Origin: a virus
Taxonomy: Duplodnaviria > Heunggongvirae > Uroviricota > Caudoviricetes
Virus record (IMG/VR): IMGVR_UViG_643348545_000008
Coordinates: 1-40,464 of that record
Reading direction: 5' to 3' (one strand)
Length of the DNA: 40,464 nucleotides
In this document: positions 3,622 to 16,693 of the stretch, piece by piece
Position numbering within the stretch: the first letter of the stretch is position 1
How the letters are laid out: each line of letters opens with the position of its first letter
Position numbers and translations under genes: made by a program
Notes under the pieces: model-generated
What the model saw: the letters and a program-made list of their open reading frames with translations, nothing else
What the model was told of the DNA's origin: nothing
Databases searched by the model: none

Positions 3622-3879
3622 ATACAGCGAACGCCATTGGTTTAGTTGGATATTTACTGTGCCGGACAAAAACGGTTTGCGGGGAAATCTTAGTTAAGTA
3701 GAATAACTGCGGGTGCTTGAGGCTATCTGTCTCAGGCATGAACACCAAAAGGCAGATAGAGAAAAGCCCCAGTTAACATTACGCGTCCTGCAAGACGCTT
3801 AACATTAATCTGAGGCCATATCTATGCGACACATAGAGATTAGCCTCTTACGGACCGAAAGGTCAAGGAGAAGCAGGCT

Positions 3880-4035
3880 ATGAAGCAGCAAAAGGCGATG
3901 TTAATCGCCCTGATCGTCATCTGTTTAACCGTCATAGTGACGGCACTGGTAACGAGGAAAGACCTCTGCGAGGTACGAATCCGAACCGGCCAGACGGAGG
4001 TCGCTGTCTTCACAGCTTACGAACCTGAGGAGTAA
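3880..4035 (+). CDS. hok: Hok/Gef-family type I toxin (51 aa)
   Basis: MKQQKAMLIALIVICLTVIVTALVTRKDLCEVRIRTGQTEVAVFTAYEPEE is a clear Hok/Gef family sequence. A short upstream ORF ends at ATGA overlapping the start. A terminator follows. Confidence 0.85.
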   Translation: MKQQKAMLIALIVICLTVIVTALVTRKDLCEVRIRTGQTEVAVFTAYEPEE

Positions 4036-5911: not shown

Positions 5912-6286
5912 ATGCTCATAGATTTGGTTTTACCTTACCCGCCGACGGTGAACACTTACTGGCGACGCCGTGGCAGCACATATTTTGTATCAAAAGCCGG
6001 GGAGCGTTATCGCCGGGCAGTGGCGCTTATTGTTCGCCAGCAGCGCTTGAAATTAAGCCTGTCCGGACGGTTGGCAATAAAAATTATTGCAGAACCACCG
6101 GATAAGCGCCGCCGTGACCTGGACAATATTCTGAAAGCGCCGCTGGATGCGCTGACGCATGCGGGGTTGCTAATGGACGATGAGCAGTTTGATGAAATCA
6201 ATATCGTTCGTGCTCAGCCAGTATCTGGTGGACGTCTGGGGGTGAAGATTTACCCCATAATGCTTGAAGGGCAGGTCAAAAAATGA
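5912..6286 (+). CDS. rusA: Holliday junction resolvase RusA (124 aa)
   Basis: PYPPTVNTYWRRRG ... RRRDLDNILKAPLDAL ... GGRLGVKI are characteristic RusA motifs. Located just upstream of Q. Confidence 0.85.
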   Translation: MLIDLVLPYPPTVNTYWRRRGSTYFVSKAGERYRRAVALIVRQQRLKLSLSGRLAIKIIAEPPDKRRRDLDNILKAPLDALTHAGLLMDDEQFDEINIVRAQPVSGGRLGVKIYPIMLEGQVKK

Positions 6287-7104
6287 AACTGGAAGATTTA
6301 CCGAAATACTACTCCCCAAAATCCCCCGGCCTGACTGATGCATCGGCCTCAACGTCGAAAGATGCGCTGAGTATCACTGATGTGATGGCCGCGCAGGGCA
6401 TGACACAGAATCGGGCTGAGATGGGGTTTTCTGCGTTCCTGGGGAAAATGGGCATTAGTATGAATGACAGAGAGCGGGCAACAGAATTGCTGACAGAATA
6501 TGCACTCAGTCGGTGCGATCGTGTGGCGGCGTTGAGAAAACTTCCGGCAGAAATAAAACCGGTAGTGATGCGCATTATGGCTTCGTACGCTTTTGAGGAT
6601 TATGCCCGCAGCGCAGCGAGTAAAAAGCAGTGCCCCTGTTGCCGAGGGGAAAAATTTATTGAAGGCGAAGTTTTTACAAACAAGGTTCAGTATCCGGATG
6701 GCAAGCCGCCAGTATGGGCAAAGTGTACGAAAGGTGTGTATCCGTCTTACTGGGAAGAATGGAAAAAAATTCGGGAGGTGGTGAAAGTTTCTTGTCCTGA
6801 ATGTAAAGGGAAGGGGGAGATTTCCACTGCCTGTAAAGACTGCCGTGGGCGTGGTGTCGCCATTCATCGTGAAGAGTCGGTAAAACGTGGTATGCCTGTT
6901 ATCAGAGACTGCCAGCGTTGTGGTGGTCGTGGCTGTGAAAGACTACCATCAACGGAGGCATTTAATGCCATACGCAAAGTGACGAGTGCTATCACGCTTG
7001 ATACGTGGAAAAAATCAGTGAAACGCTTTTACGATACGTTGGTGGTTCGGTTTGACATTGAAGAGGCATGGGCGGAGCGGCAGTTAAAGAGGGTAACGCG
7101 ATAG
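6283..7104 (+). CDS. Late-gene antiterminator Q (Qin/phage-82-type, 273 aa)
   Basis: Overlaps the rusA stop (ATGA). Multiple CxxC zinc-finger pairs and an MKLEDLPKYYSPK N-terminus like QuuQ-type antiterminators. Followed by a promoter-terminator pair. Confidence 0.75.
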   Translation: MKLEDLPKYYSPKSPGLTDASASTSKDALSITDVMAAQGMTQNRAEMGFSAFLGKMGISMNDRERATELLTEYALSRCDRVAALRKLPAEIKPVVMRIMASYAFEDYARSAASKKQCPCCRGEKFIEGEVFTNKVQYPDGKPPVWAKCTKGVYPSYWEEWKKIREVVKVSCPECKGKGEISTACKDCRGRGVAIHREESVKRGMPVIRDCQRCGGRGCERLPSTEAFNAIRKVTSAITLDTWKKSVKRFYDTLVVRFDIEEAWAERQLKRVTR

Positions 7105-8777: not shown

Positions 8778-8853
8778 GGCCCTTTAGCTCAGTGGTGAGA
8801 GCGAGCGACTCATAATCGCCAGGTCGCTGGTTCAAATCCAGCAAGGGCCACCA
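8778..8853 (+). tRNA. tRNA with CAT anticodon, closest to E. coli tRNA-Ile2 (ileX/ileY-like; formally Met/Ile)
   Basis: 76-nt cloverleaf with GGCCCTT/AAGGGCC acceptor stem, anticodon loop CTCATAA, TTCAAAT T-loop and encoded CCA. Confidence 0.8.
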
Positions 8854-8862
8854 TATCACATA

Positions 8863-8939
8863 CCGCCATTAGCTCATCGGGATAGAGCGCCAGCCTTCGA
8901 AGCTGGCTGCGCGGGGTTCGAGTCCTCGATGGCGGTCCA
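8863..8939 (+). tRNA. tRNA-Arg (anticodon TCG)
   Basis: 77-nt cloverleaf with CCGCCAT/ATGGCGG acceptor stem, anticodon loop CTTCGAA, TTCGAGT T-loop and encoded CCA. The discriminator base is unusual. Confidence 0.7.
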
Positions 8940-9646: not shown

Positions 9647-10171
9647 CAGGGGGAGAAGATTTTCTCCTGTCCTGATGATTTTGGGGCGCTGGAAAGATAT
9701 TGTGCTGTGAAGTGTTAAATTCCTCACAATTCAGTAAGTTGACAGTTGCCTGTCAGACTGAGCATTTGTTAAAAAAATTTCGCATGGTGAATCCCCCTGT
9801 GCGGAGGGGCGACTGGTGAACGGTATGATCTCTTTGATGATCGTAAGCGAGAATATGCGGGTTTAGTGTCACCGGGCTGAACTCACCGGGAGGCACCCGG
9901 CACCATGCAATGGCACATAGCGCCACTCTCCAGCCCCTCTCCGGAGGGGCTTTCTTGTGGGCAAAAAAAAAGCCCGAGTGGGTTCGGGCAACAGCATGAG
10001 ATATACATTTTTATAATCGAATGGATTTTAACCAGAATTCATAAGGCTGCGCAACTGCGCGGCCTTTTTCGTATTGCGGGCTGTAGTCTTCCTCCTGCCA
10101 TTGTCCTGTAACTTCCGGACTTCAGCCCGCCCCTCATCTGACTCACAACATTATCCCGACCGGGAGGATTC

Positions 10172-12884: not shown

Positions 12885-13100
12885 ATGTACCAGATGGAAA
12901 AAATCACAACAGGTGTGTCATACACCACGTCAGCGGTGGGAACGGGCTACTGGTTCCTGCAGTTGCTGGACAGGGTTTCCCCGTCTCAGTGGGCGGCAAT
13001 AGGCGTGCTGGGGAGTCTGCTGTTTGGTCTGCTGACGTACCTGACGAACCTGTATTTCAAAATTAAAGAAGACCGGCGTAAGGCGGCCCGGGGAGAGTAA
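12885..13100 (+). CDS. Pinholin, phage 21 S-like (71 aa, dual-start M1/M4)
   Basis: [19 protein letters not shown]...[14 protein letters not shown]...[22 protein letters not shown] closely resembles S21. Two transmembrane segments and a charged C-terminus. Confidence 0.85.
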
Positions 13101-14130: not shown

Positions 14131-14664
14131 ATGAACACCAAAATCAAATACGGCCTGTCGGCTGCCGTTCTGGCGCTGATTGCCGCTGGTGCGCCTGCGC
14201 CTGACATTCTCGACCAGTTTCTGGATGAAAAGGAAGGCAACCACACCACGGCATACCGTGATGGTGCAGGTATCTGGACCATCTGCCGTGGTGCCATCAT
14301 GGTGGATGGCAAACCTGTCGTTCCGGGCATGAAGTTGTCGAAGGAAAAATGCGACCAGGTTAACGCCATTGAGCGTGATAAAGCGCTGGCGTGGGTGGAG
14401 AAAAACATCAGAGTGCCGCTGACCGAACCCCAGAAAGCGGGGATCGCGTCATTCTGTCCGTACAACATTGGTCCCGGTAAGTGTTTCCCGTCGACGTTTT
14501 ACAGACGAATTAATGCTGGTGATCGAAAAGGTGCCTGCGAAGCGATTCGCTGGTGGATTAAGGACGGTGGCAGGGACTGCCGTATTCGCTCAAATAACTG
14601 TTACGGTCAGGTATCCCGGCGAGACCAGGAGAGCGCGCTGGCGTGCTGGGGAATCGACAGATAA
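14131..14664 (+). CDS. SAR endolysin (T4-lysozyme fold, R21/P1 Lyz-like, 177 aa)
   Basis: N-terminal signal-anchor-release helix (LSAAVLALIAAGAPA). Catalytic E-x8-D-x5-T arrangement (EGNHTTAYRDGAGIWTICRG). Confidence 0.85.
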   Translation: MNTKIKYGLSAAVLALIAAGAPAPDILDQFLDEKEGNHTTAYRDGAGIWTICRGAIMVDGKPVVPGMKLSKEKCDQVNAIERDKALAWVEKNIRVPLTEPQKAGIASFCPYNIGPGKCFPSTFYRRINAGDRKGACEAIRWWIKDGGRDCRIRSNNCYGQVSRRDQESALACWGIDR

Positions 14665-14858
14665 GCAGAATATTTTGCTAATAAATGACGTTGGCCAAGG
14701 CGGACGGATAACACGAAATCCTGCGAACTGGCAAAATGTAAGTGAATAAAAGTAAAAACCCCGTTTGTTGGCAGCAAGCGGGGTTTTGTTTTTATGGCAG
14801 TAAGCTATGGGAGGCTGCCTTGATTGATTTTAGCAAACTGATTAGGGAGTTGCGACTC

Positions 14859-14954
14859 ATGATTAGTCAATTACCAAACTGGAAATTTTTGCTGGTCTGG
14901 AGCATCCCTTTTTTATGGGTAGTATCCCAGTTAATTGTGGCAATTAAGGGGTAG
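14859..14954 (+). CDS. Small hydrophobic peptide (31 aa)
   Basis: gggag RBS 8 nt upstream. Single predicted transmembrane helix. First of four tandem small ORFs. Confidence 0.35.
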   Translation: MISQLPNWKFLLVWSIPFLWVVSQLIVAIKG

Positions 14955-14956
14955 CT

Positions 14957-15088
14957 ATGTCAGACAAACTCATAACGCCGGCAAAGGTCCTGTGTGTGAT
15001 TGTCGGTATTTCATTTTCACTAATGCTGGTTGCTCTTTTTCTGTCCCTCGCCTGGGTGATGTTGTCTTCGTCGGGGCTGCTGGGGTGA
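14957..15088 (+). CDS. Small hydrophobic peptide (43 aa)
   Basis: ATG 2 nt after the previous stop. aagggg RBS. Single transmembrane helix. Confidence 0.35.
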   Translation: MSDKLITPAKVLCVIVGISFSLMLVALFLSLAWVMLSSSGLLG

Positions 15089-15207
15089 CAGTGACTGATG
15101 ACATCAGCAGAGCGCTGGCTTTTGCTATTAAGTGGGTGGCTGTTGGTATTGCTGTGTCTCCGATGCTGTATGGGCTGGCAAAACTGGTCATTGCGCTGAA
15201 ATCGTGA
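15085..15207 (+). CDS. Small hydrophobic peptide (about 40 aa, GTG start)
   Basis: GTGA overlap with the previous stop. Sequence ALAFAIKWVAVGIAV is paralogous to the next peptide. Confidence 0.3.
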   Translation: MTVTDDISRALAFAIKWVAVGIAVSPMLYGLAKLVIALKS

Positions 15208-15218
15208 ACTTTAAAAAG

Positions 15219-15305
15219 ATGAGTGCTGAACTTATTCGGGCAATGGCATTTGCCATTCGTATTGTGGCCATTGCTGTTCTGGTCTGGGCAATTCGTTGGT
15301 GGTGA
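15219..15305 (+). CDS. Small hydrophobic peptide (28 aa)
   Basis: AMAFAIRIVAIAVLVW is paralogous to the preceding peptide. Its stop lies 1 nt before the Rz start. Confidence 0.3.
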   Translation: MSAELIRAMAFAIRIVAIAVLVWAIRWW

Positions 15306-15306
15306 T

Positions 15307-15801
15307 ATGAACCGTGTTCTGTGTGTGGTGATTATTGTCATGCTGGTAGCCTGTGGTGCGCTTAGTCTGGGGCTGAATCATTACCGTGATAACGCCATCA
15401 CCTACAAAGAGCAGCGCGATAAAAAAGTCAGTGAGCTGGAGCAGGCAAATGCAACCATTACTGATATGCAGCAGCGCCAGCGTGATGTTGCTGCACTTGA
15501 TGCCAGATACTCGAGGGAATTAGCCGATGCGAGAGCTGAAAATGAAACTCTGCGCGCTGACGTTGCCGCTGGTCGTAAGCGCCTGCGGGTCAACGCCACC
15601 TGCCCCGGTACCGTGCGTGAAGCCACCGGCACCTCCGGCGTGGATAATGCAACCGGCCCCCGACTGGCAGACACCGCTGAACGGGATTATTTCATCCTCA
15701 GAGAACGGTTGATGACAATGCAGAAGCAGCTGGAAGGGGCGCAGGACTATATCCGCACTCAGTGCACTAAGCTGGCTTTTTATTATCCGGAGGATACATG
15801 A
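15307..15801 (+). CDS. i-spanin Rz (164 aa)
   Basis: N-terminal transmembrane helix then a coiled-coil periplasmic domain. Contains an embedded +1-frame lipoprotein gene. Confidence 0.8.
   Translation: MNRVLCVVIIVMLVACGALSLGLNHYRDNAITYKEQRDKKVSELEQANATITDMQQRQRDVAALDARYSRELADARAENETLRADVAAGRKRLRVNATCPGTVREATGTSGVDNATGPRLADTAERDYFILRERLMTMQKQLEGAQDYIRTQCTKLAFYYPEDT
15542..15712 (+). CDS. o-spanin Rz1, embedded in Rz in the +1 frame (56 aa)
   Basis: MKLCALTLPLVVSACGS signal peptide and lipobox, followed by proline-rich sequence. Entirely inside Rz. Confidence 0.7.
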   Translation: MKLCALTLPLVVSACGSTPPAPVPCVKPPAPPAWIMQPAPDWQTPLNGIISSSENG

Positions 15802-16022
15802 AGAAATTACGGGTAACCGTAGAACCTTTTCAGGGAACAATTCCGTTCCGTATTTTGCAGCGTGGTCGTGTTCTTGTTGAAGGTTCGTTCAGTGGTAAAT
15901 GTACGCAATTACACTCCCGGACCTTTCAGGTGAATGCCACGAATGAAGAGCTAACCGTGGAGTGTACGATGAATGCCGCTAAATGCCGCATGGTATCCGC
16001 TGCATTACAGCCAGTGTGTTGA
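15798..16022 (+). CDS. Hypothetical protein (74 aa), translationally coupled to Rz
   Basis: ATGA overlap with the Rz stop. No family recognised. Confidence 0.35.
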   Translation: MKKLRVTVEPFQGTIPFRILQRGRVLVEGSFSGKCTQLHSRTFQVNATNEELTVECTMNAAKCRMVSAALQPVC

Positions 16023-16360
16023 GCGACCTTATTATCCATGCGCGGTATTGTCGCCGTATTCCTGCATTAACAGAGACCGCAGCCCGACAGGGAGACTCCT
16101 CTGCGAGAGTGTGCGGGGATAATCAAAAACGATACACACCGGGGTTTACCGCGTTAACGGAGCGCGGCGTTGTCCCCTCATGGTCGCTGGTCCGGTGCGA
16201 TGGTGGAAGAAACCGGACGATGTGTTACCTCGCAAGCTCTGTTATGTCATGTGTCTGATTTGTGATTTAAGTCGGATAATTGTCGTTGCCATTAAACAGA
16301 GGATTGATGACCGACAGGGTGGCATTGTTAGAATAAGACTTATTCTTATCTGTGCCGGGA

Positions 16361-16693
16361 ATGAAAATGAAAAGAAATCTTCCGTTAATTATTTTGTTGT
16401 CTTCTCTGGTTATGGGCTGTACGCAACATAAAACAGATATGCCCCGACAGTTGGTTAAGGCATTACCACAATATCCGGCCTATGCAGCGGCAAATTATAT
16501 AAAGGGACGGGTTGATGTGAAGTTTGATATTGGTGCTGATGGTACTGTCACCCGAATTGAGTTTATCCGTTCAGAGCCGCACCATTTGTTTGATGAGCAG
16601 GTTGTAAAGGCGATGGCAAAATGGCGATTTGAGAAGGACAGGCCGTGTAAAGGCGTGAAGAAAACGTTTATCTTTAGTCCTTCTGCACCCTGA
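16361..16693 (+). CDS. Lipoprotein with TonB C-terminal-like domain (about 110 aa)
   Basis: Signal peptide with lipobox-like LVMGC. PQYPAYAAANYIKGRVDVKFDIGADGTV...FDEQVVKAMAKWRFE aligns with the TonB C-terminal domain ([28 protein letters not shown]...FEREVKNAMRRWRYE). Confidence 0.7.
   Translation: MKMKRNLPLIILLSSLVMGCTQHKTDMPRQLVKALPQYPAYAAANYIKGRVDVKFDIGADGTVTRIEFIRSEPHHLFDEQVVKAMAKWRFEKDRPCKGVKKTFIFSPSAP

Follow-up and report, generated by a model that had tools for sequence, protein, structure and literature searches.

In phage P2, the lysis genes are arranged in the order Y-K-lysA-lysB-lysC, with lysA encoding the antiholin (PMC3091744). Here, we describe a locus of similar placement in a 40,464-nucleotide (nt) stretch of DNA from IMG/VR (positions 1 to 40,464 of record IMGVR_UViG_643348545_000008; the whole stretch is referred to below as the window), which is a lambdoid, Shiga toxin (Stx) phage-like Escherichia coli prophage without stx. 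Between its endolysin gene R and its i-spanin gene Rz lie four abutting open reading frames (ORFs) on the + strand, o1 to o4, each with one hydrophobic helix. The peptide genes are a recombining accessory module of the lysis cassette between endolysin and i-spanin. Three of them (o1, o3 and o4) are members of a single superfamily found in Enterobacteriaceae prophages, and o2 belongs to a second family that is restricted to E. coli and Shigella. We place the peptides with the small membrane proteins that phages encode as accessories in their late and lysis regions.

The likeness to P2 is one of gene order: in its late lysis operon, a gene for a non-essential membrane protein follows the endolysin gene and precedes the Rz/Rz1-like genes (PMC3091744). 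As in the case of a separately encoded antiholin, the peptides come from lysis-cassette genes distinct from that of the holin and look like membrane proteins. LysA differs in being much larger, with four transmembrane domains (TMDs), and there is no sequence similarity or common Pfam family; the locus described here has one to four single-helix peptides instead, and an antiholin function for them is putative. In phage Mu, the 'releasin' gp25 (DUF2730) is a small membrane-tethered accessory lysis protein that is encoded a few genes from the signal-arrest-release (SAR) endolysin and acts on the membrane step of endolysin activation; it has 99 amino acids (aa), an N-out/C-in topology and an acidic cytoplasmic domain of 73 aa (PMC9239132). 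The peptides differ in having 28-60 aa, basic heads and a predicted N-in topology. We rejected a relationship with releasin on the basis of the missing DUF2730 match, the small size and the opposite topology; the peptides also occur beside non-SAR endolysins.

The peptides do not fit the definitions of holins or spanins. They have one TMD and tails of 2-7 residues, where a holin would combine a TMD with a highly charged, hydrophilic C-terminal cytoplasmic domain, and they fall in no described holin family (Pfam/NCBIfam at E <= 0.1; hhalign probability against the S21-type holin 13.9% for the family of o3 and o4 and 0.07% for that of o1). For spanins, they are too short to contain a periplasmic domain and have neither a lipobox nor a spanin match in PHROG or Pfam. 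Small membrane exclusion proteins are encoded by prophage morons (HK97 gp15, P22 SieA/SieB and lambda RexB), and Pseudomonas 'anti-Kronos' genes are placed beside late genes. The peptide genes resemble such morons in encoding small membrane proteins between conserved late genes, in being variable and of lower G+C, and in being sometimes flanked by terminators. They differ in having no homology to them and, in the window, in lacking a promoter and terminator of their own and being translationally chained into Rz. As with a moron in the Juhala/Hendrix sense, the DNA is an addition between genes that adjoin in related phages, and its nucleotide composition is unlike that of its neighbours, but an own promoter with a downstream terminator is seen only in stand-alone copies in Citrobacter and Salmonella. 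None of the six peptide forms searched matched a PADLOC-DB model of known anti-phage defence or exclusion proteins (E <= 0.1). Type I toxins (Hok, Ldr, Ibs, ShoB and TisB) are similar in size, hydrophobicity and single transmembrane helix; the peptides differ in standing in tandem in an operon and in lacking an antisense RNA gene, a long structured leader, an own promoter and an Rfam match.

The sequences themselves are not new, as they are catalogued hypothetical proteins and PHROGs of unknown function. Hundreds of E. coli genomes, and induced phages such as vB_EcoS-569R3 and PhiR5_1, already have annotations for identical or near-identical proteins, and RefSeq lists them as 'hypothetical protein' (WP_001280935.1, WP_042004856.1, WP_032140280.1, WP_001303555.1 and WP_000675931.1). 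Neither the PHROG nor the RefSeq entries give a function, and the link between families A and C described below, the mosaic arrangements and the recurrent position before the i-spanin gene are unrecorded there. Phrase searches on the R-Rz interval returned nothing relevant, and we found no study of the peptides. What is new is the set of corrected gene models, the A/C superfamily, the map of the mosaic and the recurrence before i-spanin genes in unrelated cassettes.

The peptide genes and their families

An earlier note on this DNA had reported a hairpin followed by four tandem single-helix ORFs between R and Rz. All of these are present and can be read directly from the sequence (Table 1), as can the coupling of stops and starts that it described: a 2-nt gap between o1 and o2, GTGA overlaps at the next two junctions and a 1-nt gap before the Rz ATG. 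Every peptide contains one 19-residue window with a mean Kyte-Doolittle value of 1.9-2.9. In 16 of 2000 dinucleotide shuffles, four ORFs also formed a chain with junctions within 4 nt; such a chain is by itself unusual but not overwhelming. The sizes of 43 and 40 aa given for o2 and o3 stand; o1 most likely has 44 aa rather than 31, and o4 may have 33 rather than 28.

We take TTG 14820 to be the most likely start of o1 because it has a Shine-Dalgarno (SD) sequence, GGAGG, at a 5-nt spacing, because the matching phrog_6632 profile, of 45 positions, begins at this codon, and because the homologues have 44-45 aa. In Citrobacter, the Enterobacter cloacae complex and Klebsiella grimontii these homologues start with MIDFSKLIRELR, use GTG at this codon and have an SD of their own. 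An AlphaFold2 model of the 44-aa form has helices at residues 4-16 and 21-43 with a break at QLPN (pLDDT 78.9). Weighing against the long form, three loci with the related gene o5 have a stop just upstream of the internal Met, which leaves room for the short form. A 70-aa ORF from GTG 14742 was rejected, since its first 26 codons are read-through of the terminator hairpin.

Neither o3 nor o4 has an SD of its own, and they can only be reached through reinitiation at the GTGA overlaps. PGAP annotates o2 as WP_001280935.1, o3 as a 51-aa version from an upstream TTG and o4 in its 28-aa form as WP_032140280.1. The C-terminal tails are KG, SSSGLLG, KS and RWW, and the charge is found at the N-terminus. 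By the positive-inside rule, the long forms are predicted to be N-in; their heads, basic or amphipathic, would be cytoplasmic, and hardly any of the peptide would be periplasmic.

All four peptides match PHROG profiles over most of the profile length: o1, in its long form, phrog_6632 (1.3e-12), o2 phrog_4906 (4.5e-21), o3 phrog_1115 (6.4e-25) and o4 phrog_4493 (4.4e-7). The claim that the third and fourth peptides are paralogous is borne out, as both match phrog_1115, phrog_3246 and phrog_4493, their Smith-Waterman score of 47 was reached by 1 of 2000 shuffles, and their full-length relatives align end to end. These relatives have 60 aa for o3 (M.KYKRILLRLTMKNGLE..APVTDD.SRALAFAIKWVAVGIAVSPMLYGLAKLVIALKS) and 50 aa for o4 (VRKYKRFFLRLSIMKGIE...AAAFAIRIVAIAVLVWAIRWW, ending AIRWW), so that o3 and o4 are N-terminally truncated versions of 50-60 aa proteins, which we call family C and which are found in E. 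coli, E. marmotae and Salmonella. The o2 family comprises 103 clusters at 90% identity, all from E. coli and all 'hypothetical', with one cluster member also from Shigella sonnei; its strongly conserved core reads DKLI..AK.LCVIVGISFSLMLVA.

Family A consists of o1 and o5, with homologues of 44-45 aa in five genera that are conserved at the protein level and show synonymous changes in the head. An indexed search found 16 clusters, and an exhaustive hidden Markov model (HMM) search of 1.84 billion representatives found only 38 clusters at 50% identity, with lengths of 24-86 aa except for one hit of 710 aa, which was judged spurious and matched 18 profile positions only. Families A and C share their C-terminal half (hhalign probability 80.7%, E = 1.3e-5) and natural hybrids join an A head to a C tail (e.g. 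...SSAPFLYGVARLIEVVKQ); for these reasons we treat them, on sequence grounds, as one superfamily with exchangeable cytoplasmic heads. Its members have a basic or amphipathic head, predicted to be cytoplasmic, one transmembrane helix and a tail of 2-4 residues ending KG, KS or RWW. Searches of Pfam and NCBIfam (E <= 0.1), PADLOC (0 PADLOC-DB families for six peptide forms at E <= 0.1) and PDB sequences returned nothing for any form of the peptides.

The ORFs vary between relatives in the manner of genes. The earlier note had made its proposal depend on conservation of the reading frames in related prophages, and the frames are indeed conserved, reshuffled intact and varied in a coding manner. 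Our comparison covered 91 R-Rz intervals, 53 of them distinct, taken from complete E. coli genomes, IMG/VR contigs and phage records; most are near-identical E. coli copies, and the selection statistics rest on few independent changes. As pairwise sums without phylogenetic correction, the ratios of non-synonymous to synonymous variation (pN/pS) in the called frames are 0.47 for o1, 0.57 for o2, 0.31 for o3, 0.38 for o4 and 0.09 for the fifth relative, o5, compared with 0.8-1.7 in the other two + frames. Variable sites fall at codon positions 1, 2 and 3 in the proportion 39/30/65 (p = 6e-4). Each module retains its own start and stop, on the same strand, across more than 10 arrangements. Additionally, all four ORFs have been called independently, each on about 1000 contigs, in a collection of 15 billion proteins, and PGAP annotates o2, o3 and o4 in an identical interval. 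Damaged copies also occur, with a premature stop in o1 (locus L007) and frameshifts in o3 (L005) and o2 (L058 and L062).

An antisense ORF of 123 aa lies opposite o2-o4, and if it were the real gene the + strand peptides would be its shadows. Its frame shares the wobble position with the sense frames and, in both E. coli and Salmonella, has no stops opposite o2, o3 or o4. Its pN/pS is the same and its replacement scores are similar, also in the Salmonella homologues; because of the shared wobble position, pN/pS and BLOSUM replacement scores cannot separate the two strands. Synonymous codon usage, with the window's own genes as reference, does so: o2-o4 score +0.195 per codon, close to the mean of real genes (+0.185), compared with -0.219 for the antisense ORF and a mean of -0.10 for shadow frames of real genes. 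Opposite o1 and o5, stops interrupt the antisense frame. The ORF begins within Rz at a start that is not conserved and differs between arrangements, no SD is visible, and transcription would run head-on against the late operon. It was never called in the annotations seen nor in the 15-billion-protein collection. From codon usage, the stops opposite o1/o5 and the module boundaries, we conclude that the + strand ORFs are the genes, and consider an antisense gene very improbable.

The R-Rz interval among relatives

Among the 91 loci, the four-gene arrangement of the window (645 nt) is found 28 times, and the interval is otherwise filled by o5 alone (300/301 nt, 29 loci), a long o4 alone (338/339 nt, 14 loci) or a long o3 with o2 (481-495 nt, six loci). 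Single loci have a long o3 with o4 (441 nt), o1 with o2 (429 nt), the antirepressor gene Ant with o2 (the P27 type, 1002 nt) or a damaged o1-o2-o3 copy (L005, 607 nt). Four larger versions (1416-1901 nt) include a 231-aa gene or methyltransferase-like genes, and in six loci R and Rz are spaced 0-34 nt apart with no peptide gene. E. coli G1/2 has the interval of the window, and O157:H7 EC4115 the form with a long o3 and o2. The Ant and o2 form recurs in many Stx-phage records, where the matches fall under antirepressor or endopeptidase annotations; in Stx phages of the 933W/P27 type, o2 stands directly before Rz. Since genes for DNA-methyltransferase-like proteins (311 and 255 aa) have been inserted between the peptide genes and Rz (L055 and L031/L033), the junction accepts larger cargo too.

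The last peptide stop is 1-7 nt from Rz among the relatives, and in every arrangement, other cassettes and genera included, the peptide genes end <= 22 nt before the i-spanin start. Part of the interval is matched by 2078 of 5426 complete E. coli genomes (more than a third), and 80% or more of it by 587. The earlier note had taken R and Rz to be normally adjacent. This holds for the E. coli K-12 prophages DLP12 and Qin, in which the two genes overlap and the interval is absent, and in other Escherichia and Phytobacter prophages they are 0-6 nt apart. It is not the norm for R and Rz of the type seen here: the E. coli relatives recovered through Rz all have an occupied interval of at least 300 nt. 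What a scan of a contig collection with Rz returned was mostly phage-lambda control DNA from unrelated assemblies, of little further use.

The same families precede i-spanin genes in other cassettes. In addition to the E. coli cassette with an S21-type holin and lysozyme, family C stands directly before Rz in Salmonella behind a PF16080 holin and lysozyme, behind Ant, and behind a lambda-type holin and a GH19 endolysin. Enterobacter cassettes run from holins (phrog_198/217) through a GH19 endolysin lacking a SAR domain, a hairpin and a family A gene to small i- and o-spanins of different families (phrog_1026/1275). From the Enterobacter and Salmonella cassettes, the placement endolysin, hairpin, peptide, i-spanin is seen to recur with non-homologous partners, and this sharing of families between cassettes with unrelated holins and endolysins strengthens a link of the peptides with lysis.

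The peptide genes nearly always stand just before the i-spanin gene; occasional copies stand alone. In Citrobacter, a family A gene is placed between tail genes I and J, with a lipoprotein gene as neighbour and with a terminator and a promoter-like site upstream; a terminator-like hairpin downstream is visible by eye and was not listed by the terminator scan. In Salmonella, family C occurs after tail-fibre genes with terminators on both sides. One family C copy lies beside an esterase gene of the SASA family (nanS-like, PF03629). A further contig (L142; Logan SRR28696687, 1-720) has the hairpin, o1 and o2, then a lambda-S-type holin and a lambda-R-like transglycosylase, and further on a gene for a pertussis-toxin-like ADP-ribosyltransferase. 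Complete E. coli genomes and phages offer no parallel to its arrangement of o1-o2 ahead of a lambda-type holin, and the contig probably comes from a prophage with tandem or recombinant lysis cassettes.

The start of the interval is more constant than its contents. Interval bases 1-129 are kept in complete E. coli genomes even where the remaining interval differs, and the 3' untranslated region (3' UTR) of R and its hairpin are retained across different arrangements. The hairpin (AAAACCCCGTTTGTTGGCAGCAAGCGGGGTTTT) resembles an intrinsic terminator; an 86-nt fold has a free energy of -33.3 kcal/mol (z = -4.07), which was equalled by 0 of 200 shuffles. A hairpin of this kind, with other stem bases (CCCCGA..TCGGGG), stands before the family A genes in Enterobacter and L142. 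Where Ant or the 231-aa gene follows R (L004, L002, L031 and L033), another hairpin, GGCACCGTAATGGTGCC + TTTGTCATTT, takes the place of the CCCCG...CGGGG hairpin, some 100-130 nt past the R stop. What is conserved after R is the structure and not the sequence. Using a simple consensus search, we found no promoter-like site on the + strand between R and o1, and one weak site on the minus strand (14963-14934), which is at chance level (3 found, 4.0 expected).

The 3' UTR itself, of about 90 nt, is conserved in more than 2000 E. coli genomes and has a hypervariable, partly palindromic core near 14690-14710. It ends at the hairpin terminator, and could be a 3'UTR-derived small RNA. An Rfam search of 14500-15500 gave no family at the gathering threshold or at E <= 5 beyond a match to ohsC (E = 1.4), which is the best match in this stretch, lies on the same strand and is produced by the terminator.

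Lysis modulation and competing explanations

The position just before the i-spanin gene recurs in four cassette combinations. We tentatively favour a role for the peptides as late-expressed, non-essential inner-membrane modulators of lysis, to which we would give a probability of about 0.4. With no promoter of their own, the genes would be transcribed only when the Q-modified late RNA polymerase reads through the terminator after R. Ribosomes would load at o1 (TTG 14820, with its good SD) and at o2, and translation would be handed on by the stop/start overlaps to o3, o4 and Rz. The peptides would then enter the inner membrane with an N-in topology, late in infection, and might make helix-helix contacts with membrane-embedded lysis proteins, either the pinholin or holin or the TMD of the i-spanin. 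Disruption of the envelope could be modulated in this way, and the timing or efficiency of lysis tuned, as with the antiholin LysA of P2. Lysis timing sets the burst size and, in Stx phages, also the moment and amount of Shiga-toxin release. If the peptides do modulate the pinholin, the SAR endolysin or the spanin, they would be a new component of one of the best-studied lysis pathways, and their role would explain why the R-Rz junction is so mosaic. With the comparative map of families, true starts and naturally occurring variants with one or four genes, simple lysis-curve genetics could address the question directly.

Several observations weigh against lysis modulation. The cluster is dispensable for lysis cassettes generally, as the overlapping R and Rz of DLP12 and Qin illustrate. 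The G+C content of the cluster (0.459, and 0.385 for o1) is lower than that of R (0.549) and Rz (0.541), which gives it the look of an insertion, and the adjacency to Rz may reflect a permissive recombination site alone. Members of the families are found outside lysis cassettes, flanked by terminators among tail genes, which fits morons better. The searches made gave no homology to holin, antiholin, releasin or spanin families. The truncated o3 and o4, without SD sequences, may be poorly translated, and the peptide strings are absent from the literature searched and from the supplements of two ribosome profiling (Ribo-seq) studies of enterohaemorrhagic E. coli, so that no evidence of translation was found there. 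All functional statements made here are inferences.

A bolder version of lysis modulation treats the R-Rz interval of S21/R21-type cassettes, those of Stx phages included, as a hypervariable 'lysis-tuning' locus, in which interchangeable single-helix peptides are TMD mimics that co-assemble with the pinholin or the i-spanin. We regard it as improbable. The family C helix (KWVAVGIAVSPMLYGL, window 15120-15170) aligns with TMD2 of the S21-type pinholin (12990-13040) with a Smith-Waterman score of 36, which 15 of 2000 shuffles reached, and o2 (KVLCVIV..MLVA) resembles the Rz TMD (RVLCVVI..MLVA) with a score reached by 105 of 2000 shuffles. Neither similarity is significant after about 20 comparisons, and we retain both as leads only. 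If this version were true, the peptides would be a new class of antiholin or 'anti-spanin', lysis could be advanced, delayed or sharpened, and recombination would set strain-specific timing of lysis and of toxin and phage release.

The earlier note had also offered exclusion factors and membrane-depolarising toxic peptides as possible roles. The main rival is that the peptide genes are moron-type accessory genes that benefit the prophage or its progeny and not lysis, serving superinfection exclusion at the inner membrane, where entry of DNA from competing phages would be blocked, or the protection of progeny from re-adsorption, with the R-Rz junction as a tolerated insertion site; we consider it somewhat unlikely. 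The G+C below that of the flanks fits this explanation, as do the variation in copy number and order between relatives and the diversified paralogues. The terminator-flanked copies among tail genes lend the exclusion role some support, with Citrobacter family A between I and J and Salmonella family C after the tail-fibre genes; in Stx-type phages, o2 accompanies the antirepressor moron Ant, and exclusion genes beside late or lysis genes have precedents (bioRxiv 10.1101/2024.03.05.583538). Should the peptides be exclusion factors, they would be among the smallest known. The copy in the window, however, has no promoter or downstream terminator and is tightly coupled into Rz, late-only expression would be of little use for classical exclusion, and PADLOC gave no match. 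The position directly before the i-spanin gene in four unrelated cassette types is also more specific than a generic insertion site would lead one to expect.

A toxic role gains nothing from our searches, which found no antisense RNA family, own promoter, PADLOC match or Pfam match. Membrane-damaging peptides, acting as auxiliary holins or in the manner of type I toxins, could collapse the proton motive force, which would make the pinholin fire and set the SAR endolysin free. The peptides are small, strongly hydrophobic and single-helix, they lie beside a depolarisation-triggered pair of pinholin and SAR endolysin, and the family C helix weakly resembles pinholin TMD2, as described above. We nevertheless think this decidedly improbable: there is no Pfam holin match, hhalign gives 13.9% against the holin, the ohsC match is a same-strand product of the terminator rather than an antitoxin RNA, up to four copies are tolerated in about one in ten complete E. 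coli genomes, and the families also accompany canonical non-SAR endolysins. Another doubtful alternative is that the ORFs, above all the truncated o3 and o4, have little or no protein function and are recombination debris relaying ribosomes from an entry point after the terminator to Rz. The loss of the heads and SD sequences of o3 and o4, the ending of every arrangement within 22 nt of the i-spanin start, and the damaged copies of o1, o2 and o3 would suit a relay. This is countered by the signal of purifying selection in every family, by the conservation of the family A protein across five genera with synonymous changes in its head, by the stand-alone copies far from any spanin gene, and by the K-12 prophages, in which the R-Rz overlap functions without a relay.

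Prophage setting

The late operon of the window runs from Q to the terminase with every gene on the + strand, and its features are listed in Table 1 together with those of the interval.

Table 1. Features of the R-Rz interval and the surrounding late region (positions in the window)
Feature	Position	Strand	Remarks
Q-type antiterminator	6283..7104	+	
Two tRNA genes	8778-8936		Late region
STnc100 match	9753-10019 stretch	+	Rfam search, 179 bits
AsxR match	9753-10019 stretch	-	Rfam search, 63 bits (equal to gathering score); adjoins STnc100
phrog_143 protein, 662 aa		+	Late region
S21-type class II holin	12885..13100	+	PF04971
DUF1327/YdfR-family protein, 329 aa	13105-14094	+	Between holin and R
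Endolysin R, SAR-type phage lysozyme	14131..14664	+	Stop 14662-14664; PF00959 2.4e-24; phrog_7 1.9e-62
R 3' UTR	14665..14754	+	Conserved, with hypervariable core; alignment of 41 distinct interval heads
Intrinsic-terminator-like hairpin	14755-14787, T-run to 14793	+	Precedes first peptide gene
o1, long form, 44 aa	TTG 14820..14954	+	Family A
o1, short alternative, 31 aa	ATG 14859..14954	+	
o2, 43 aa	ATG 14957..15088	+	Single-pass membrane protein; 2 nt after o1 stop
Antisense ORF, 123 aa	14970..15341	-	Judged shadow of o2-o4
o3, 40 aa	GTG 15085..15207	+	N-truncated family C; GTGA overlap with o2
o4, 33 or 28 aa	GTG 15204 or ATG 15219..15305	+	Truncated family C paralogue ending IRWW; GTGA overlap
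Rz, i-spanin	15307..15801	+	1 nt past o4 stop; PF03245 5.7e-50; phrog_13 2.6e-77
Rz1, o-spanin lipoprotein	15527..15712	+	Embedded in Rz; lipobox LVVSAC, proline-rich body

The stretch with STnc100, AsxR and the tRNA genes is the usual place of stx in Stx phages, and the window has no stx gene there. Upstream of R, the DUF1327/YdfR gene is much longer than the versions in K-12 Qin and O157 EC4115, which have about 103-114 aa; its parts match several separate PHROGs, and it therefore looks like a mosaic fusion. The N-terminus of R (MNTKIKYGLSAAVLALIAAGAPAP) is weakly hydrophobic. Rz1 was identified through the established Rz/Rz1 architecture.

An ORF of 74 aa (15798-16022, +) overlaps the Rz stop (ATGA) and is an uncharacterised late gene coupled to the lysis cassette, with a partial match to phrog_2571 (unknown function) and annotation as hypothetical protein WP_000735655.1. 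Further on, a 113-aa lipoprotein gene with the lipobox LVMGC (16352-16693, +) matches phrog_1267, which is labelled 'Rz-like spanin'. This label looks doubtful; in strain G1/2, PGAP annotates what is apparently the same gene, from a later start (108 aa), as 'TonB family protein' WP_000828068.1. In the early region of the same prophage, an Rfam match to the sok antitoxin (3711-3882, +, 106.7 bits) points to a type I toxin-antitoxin locus of the hok/sok type.

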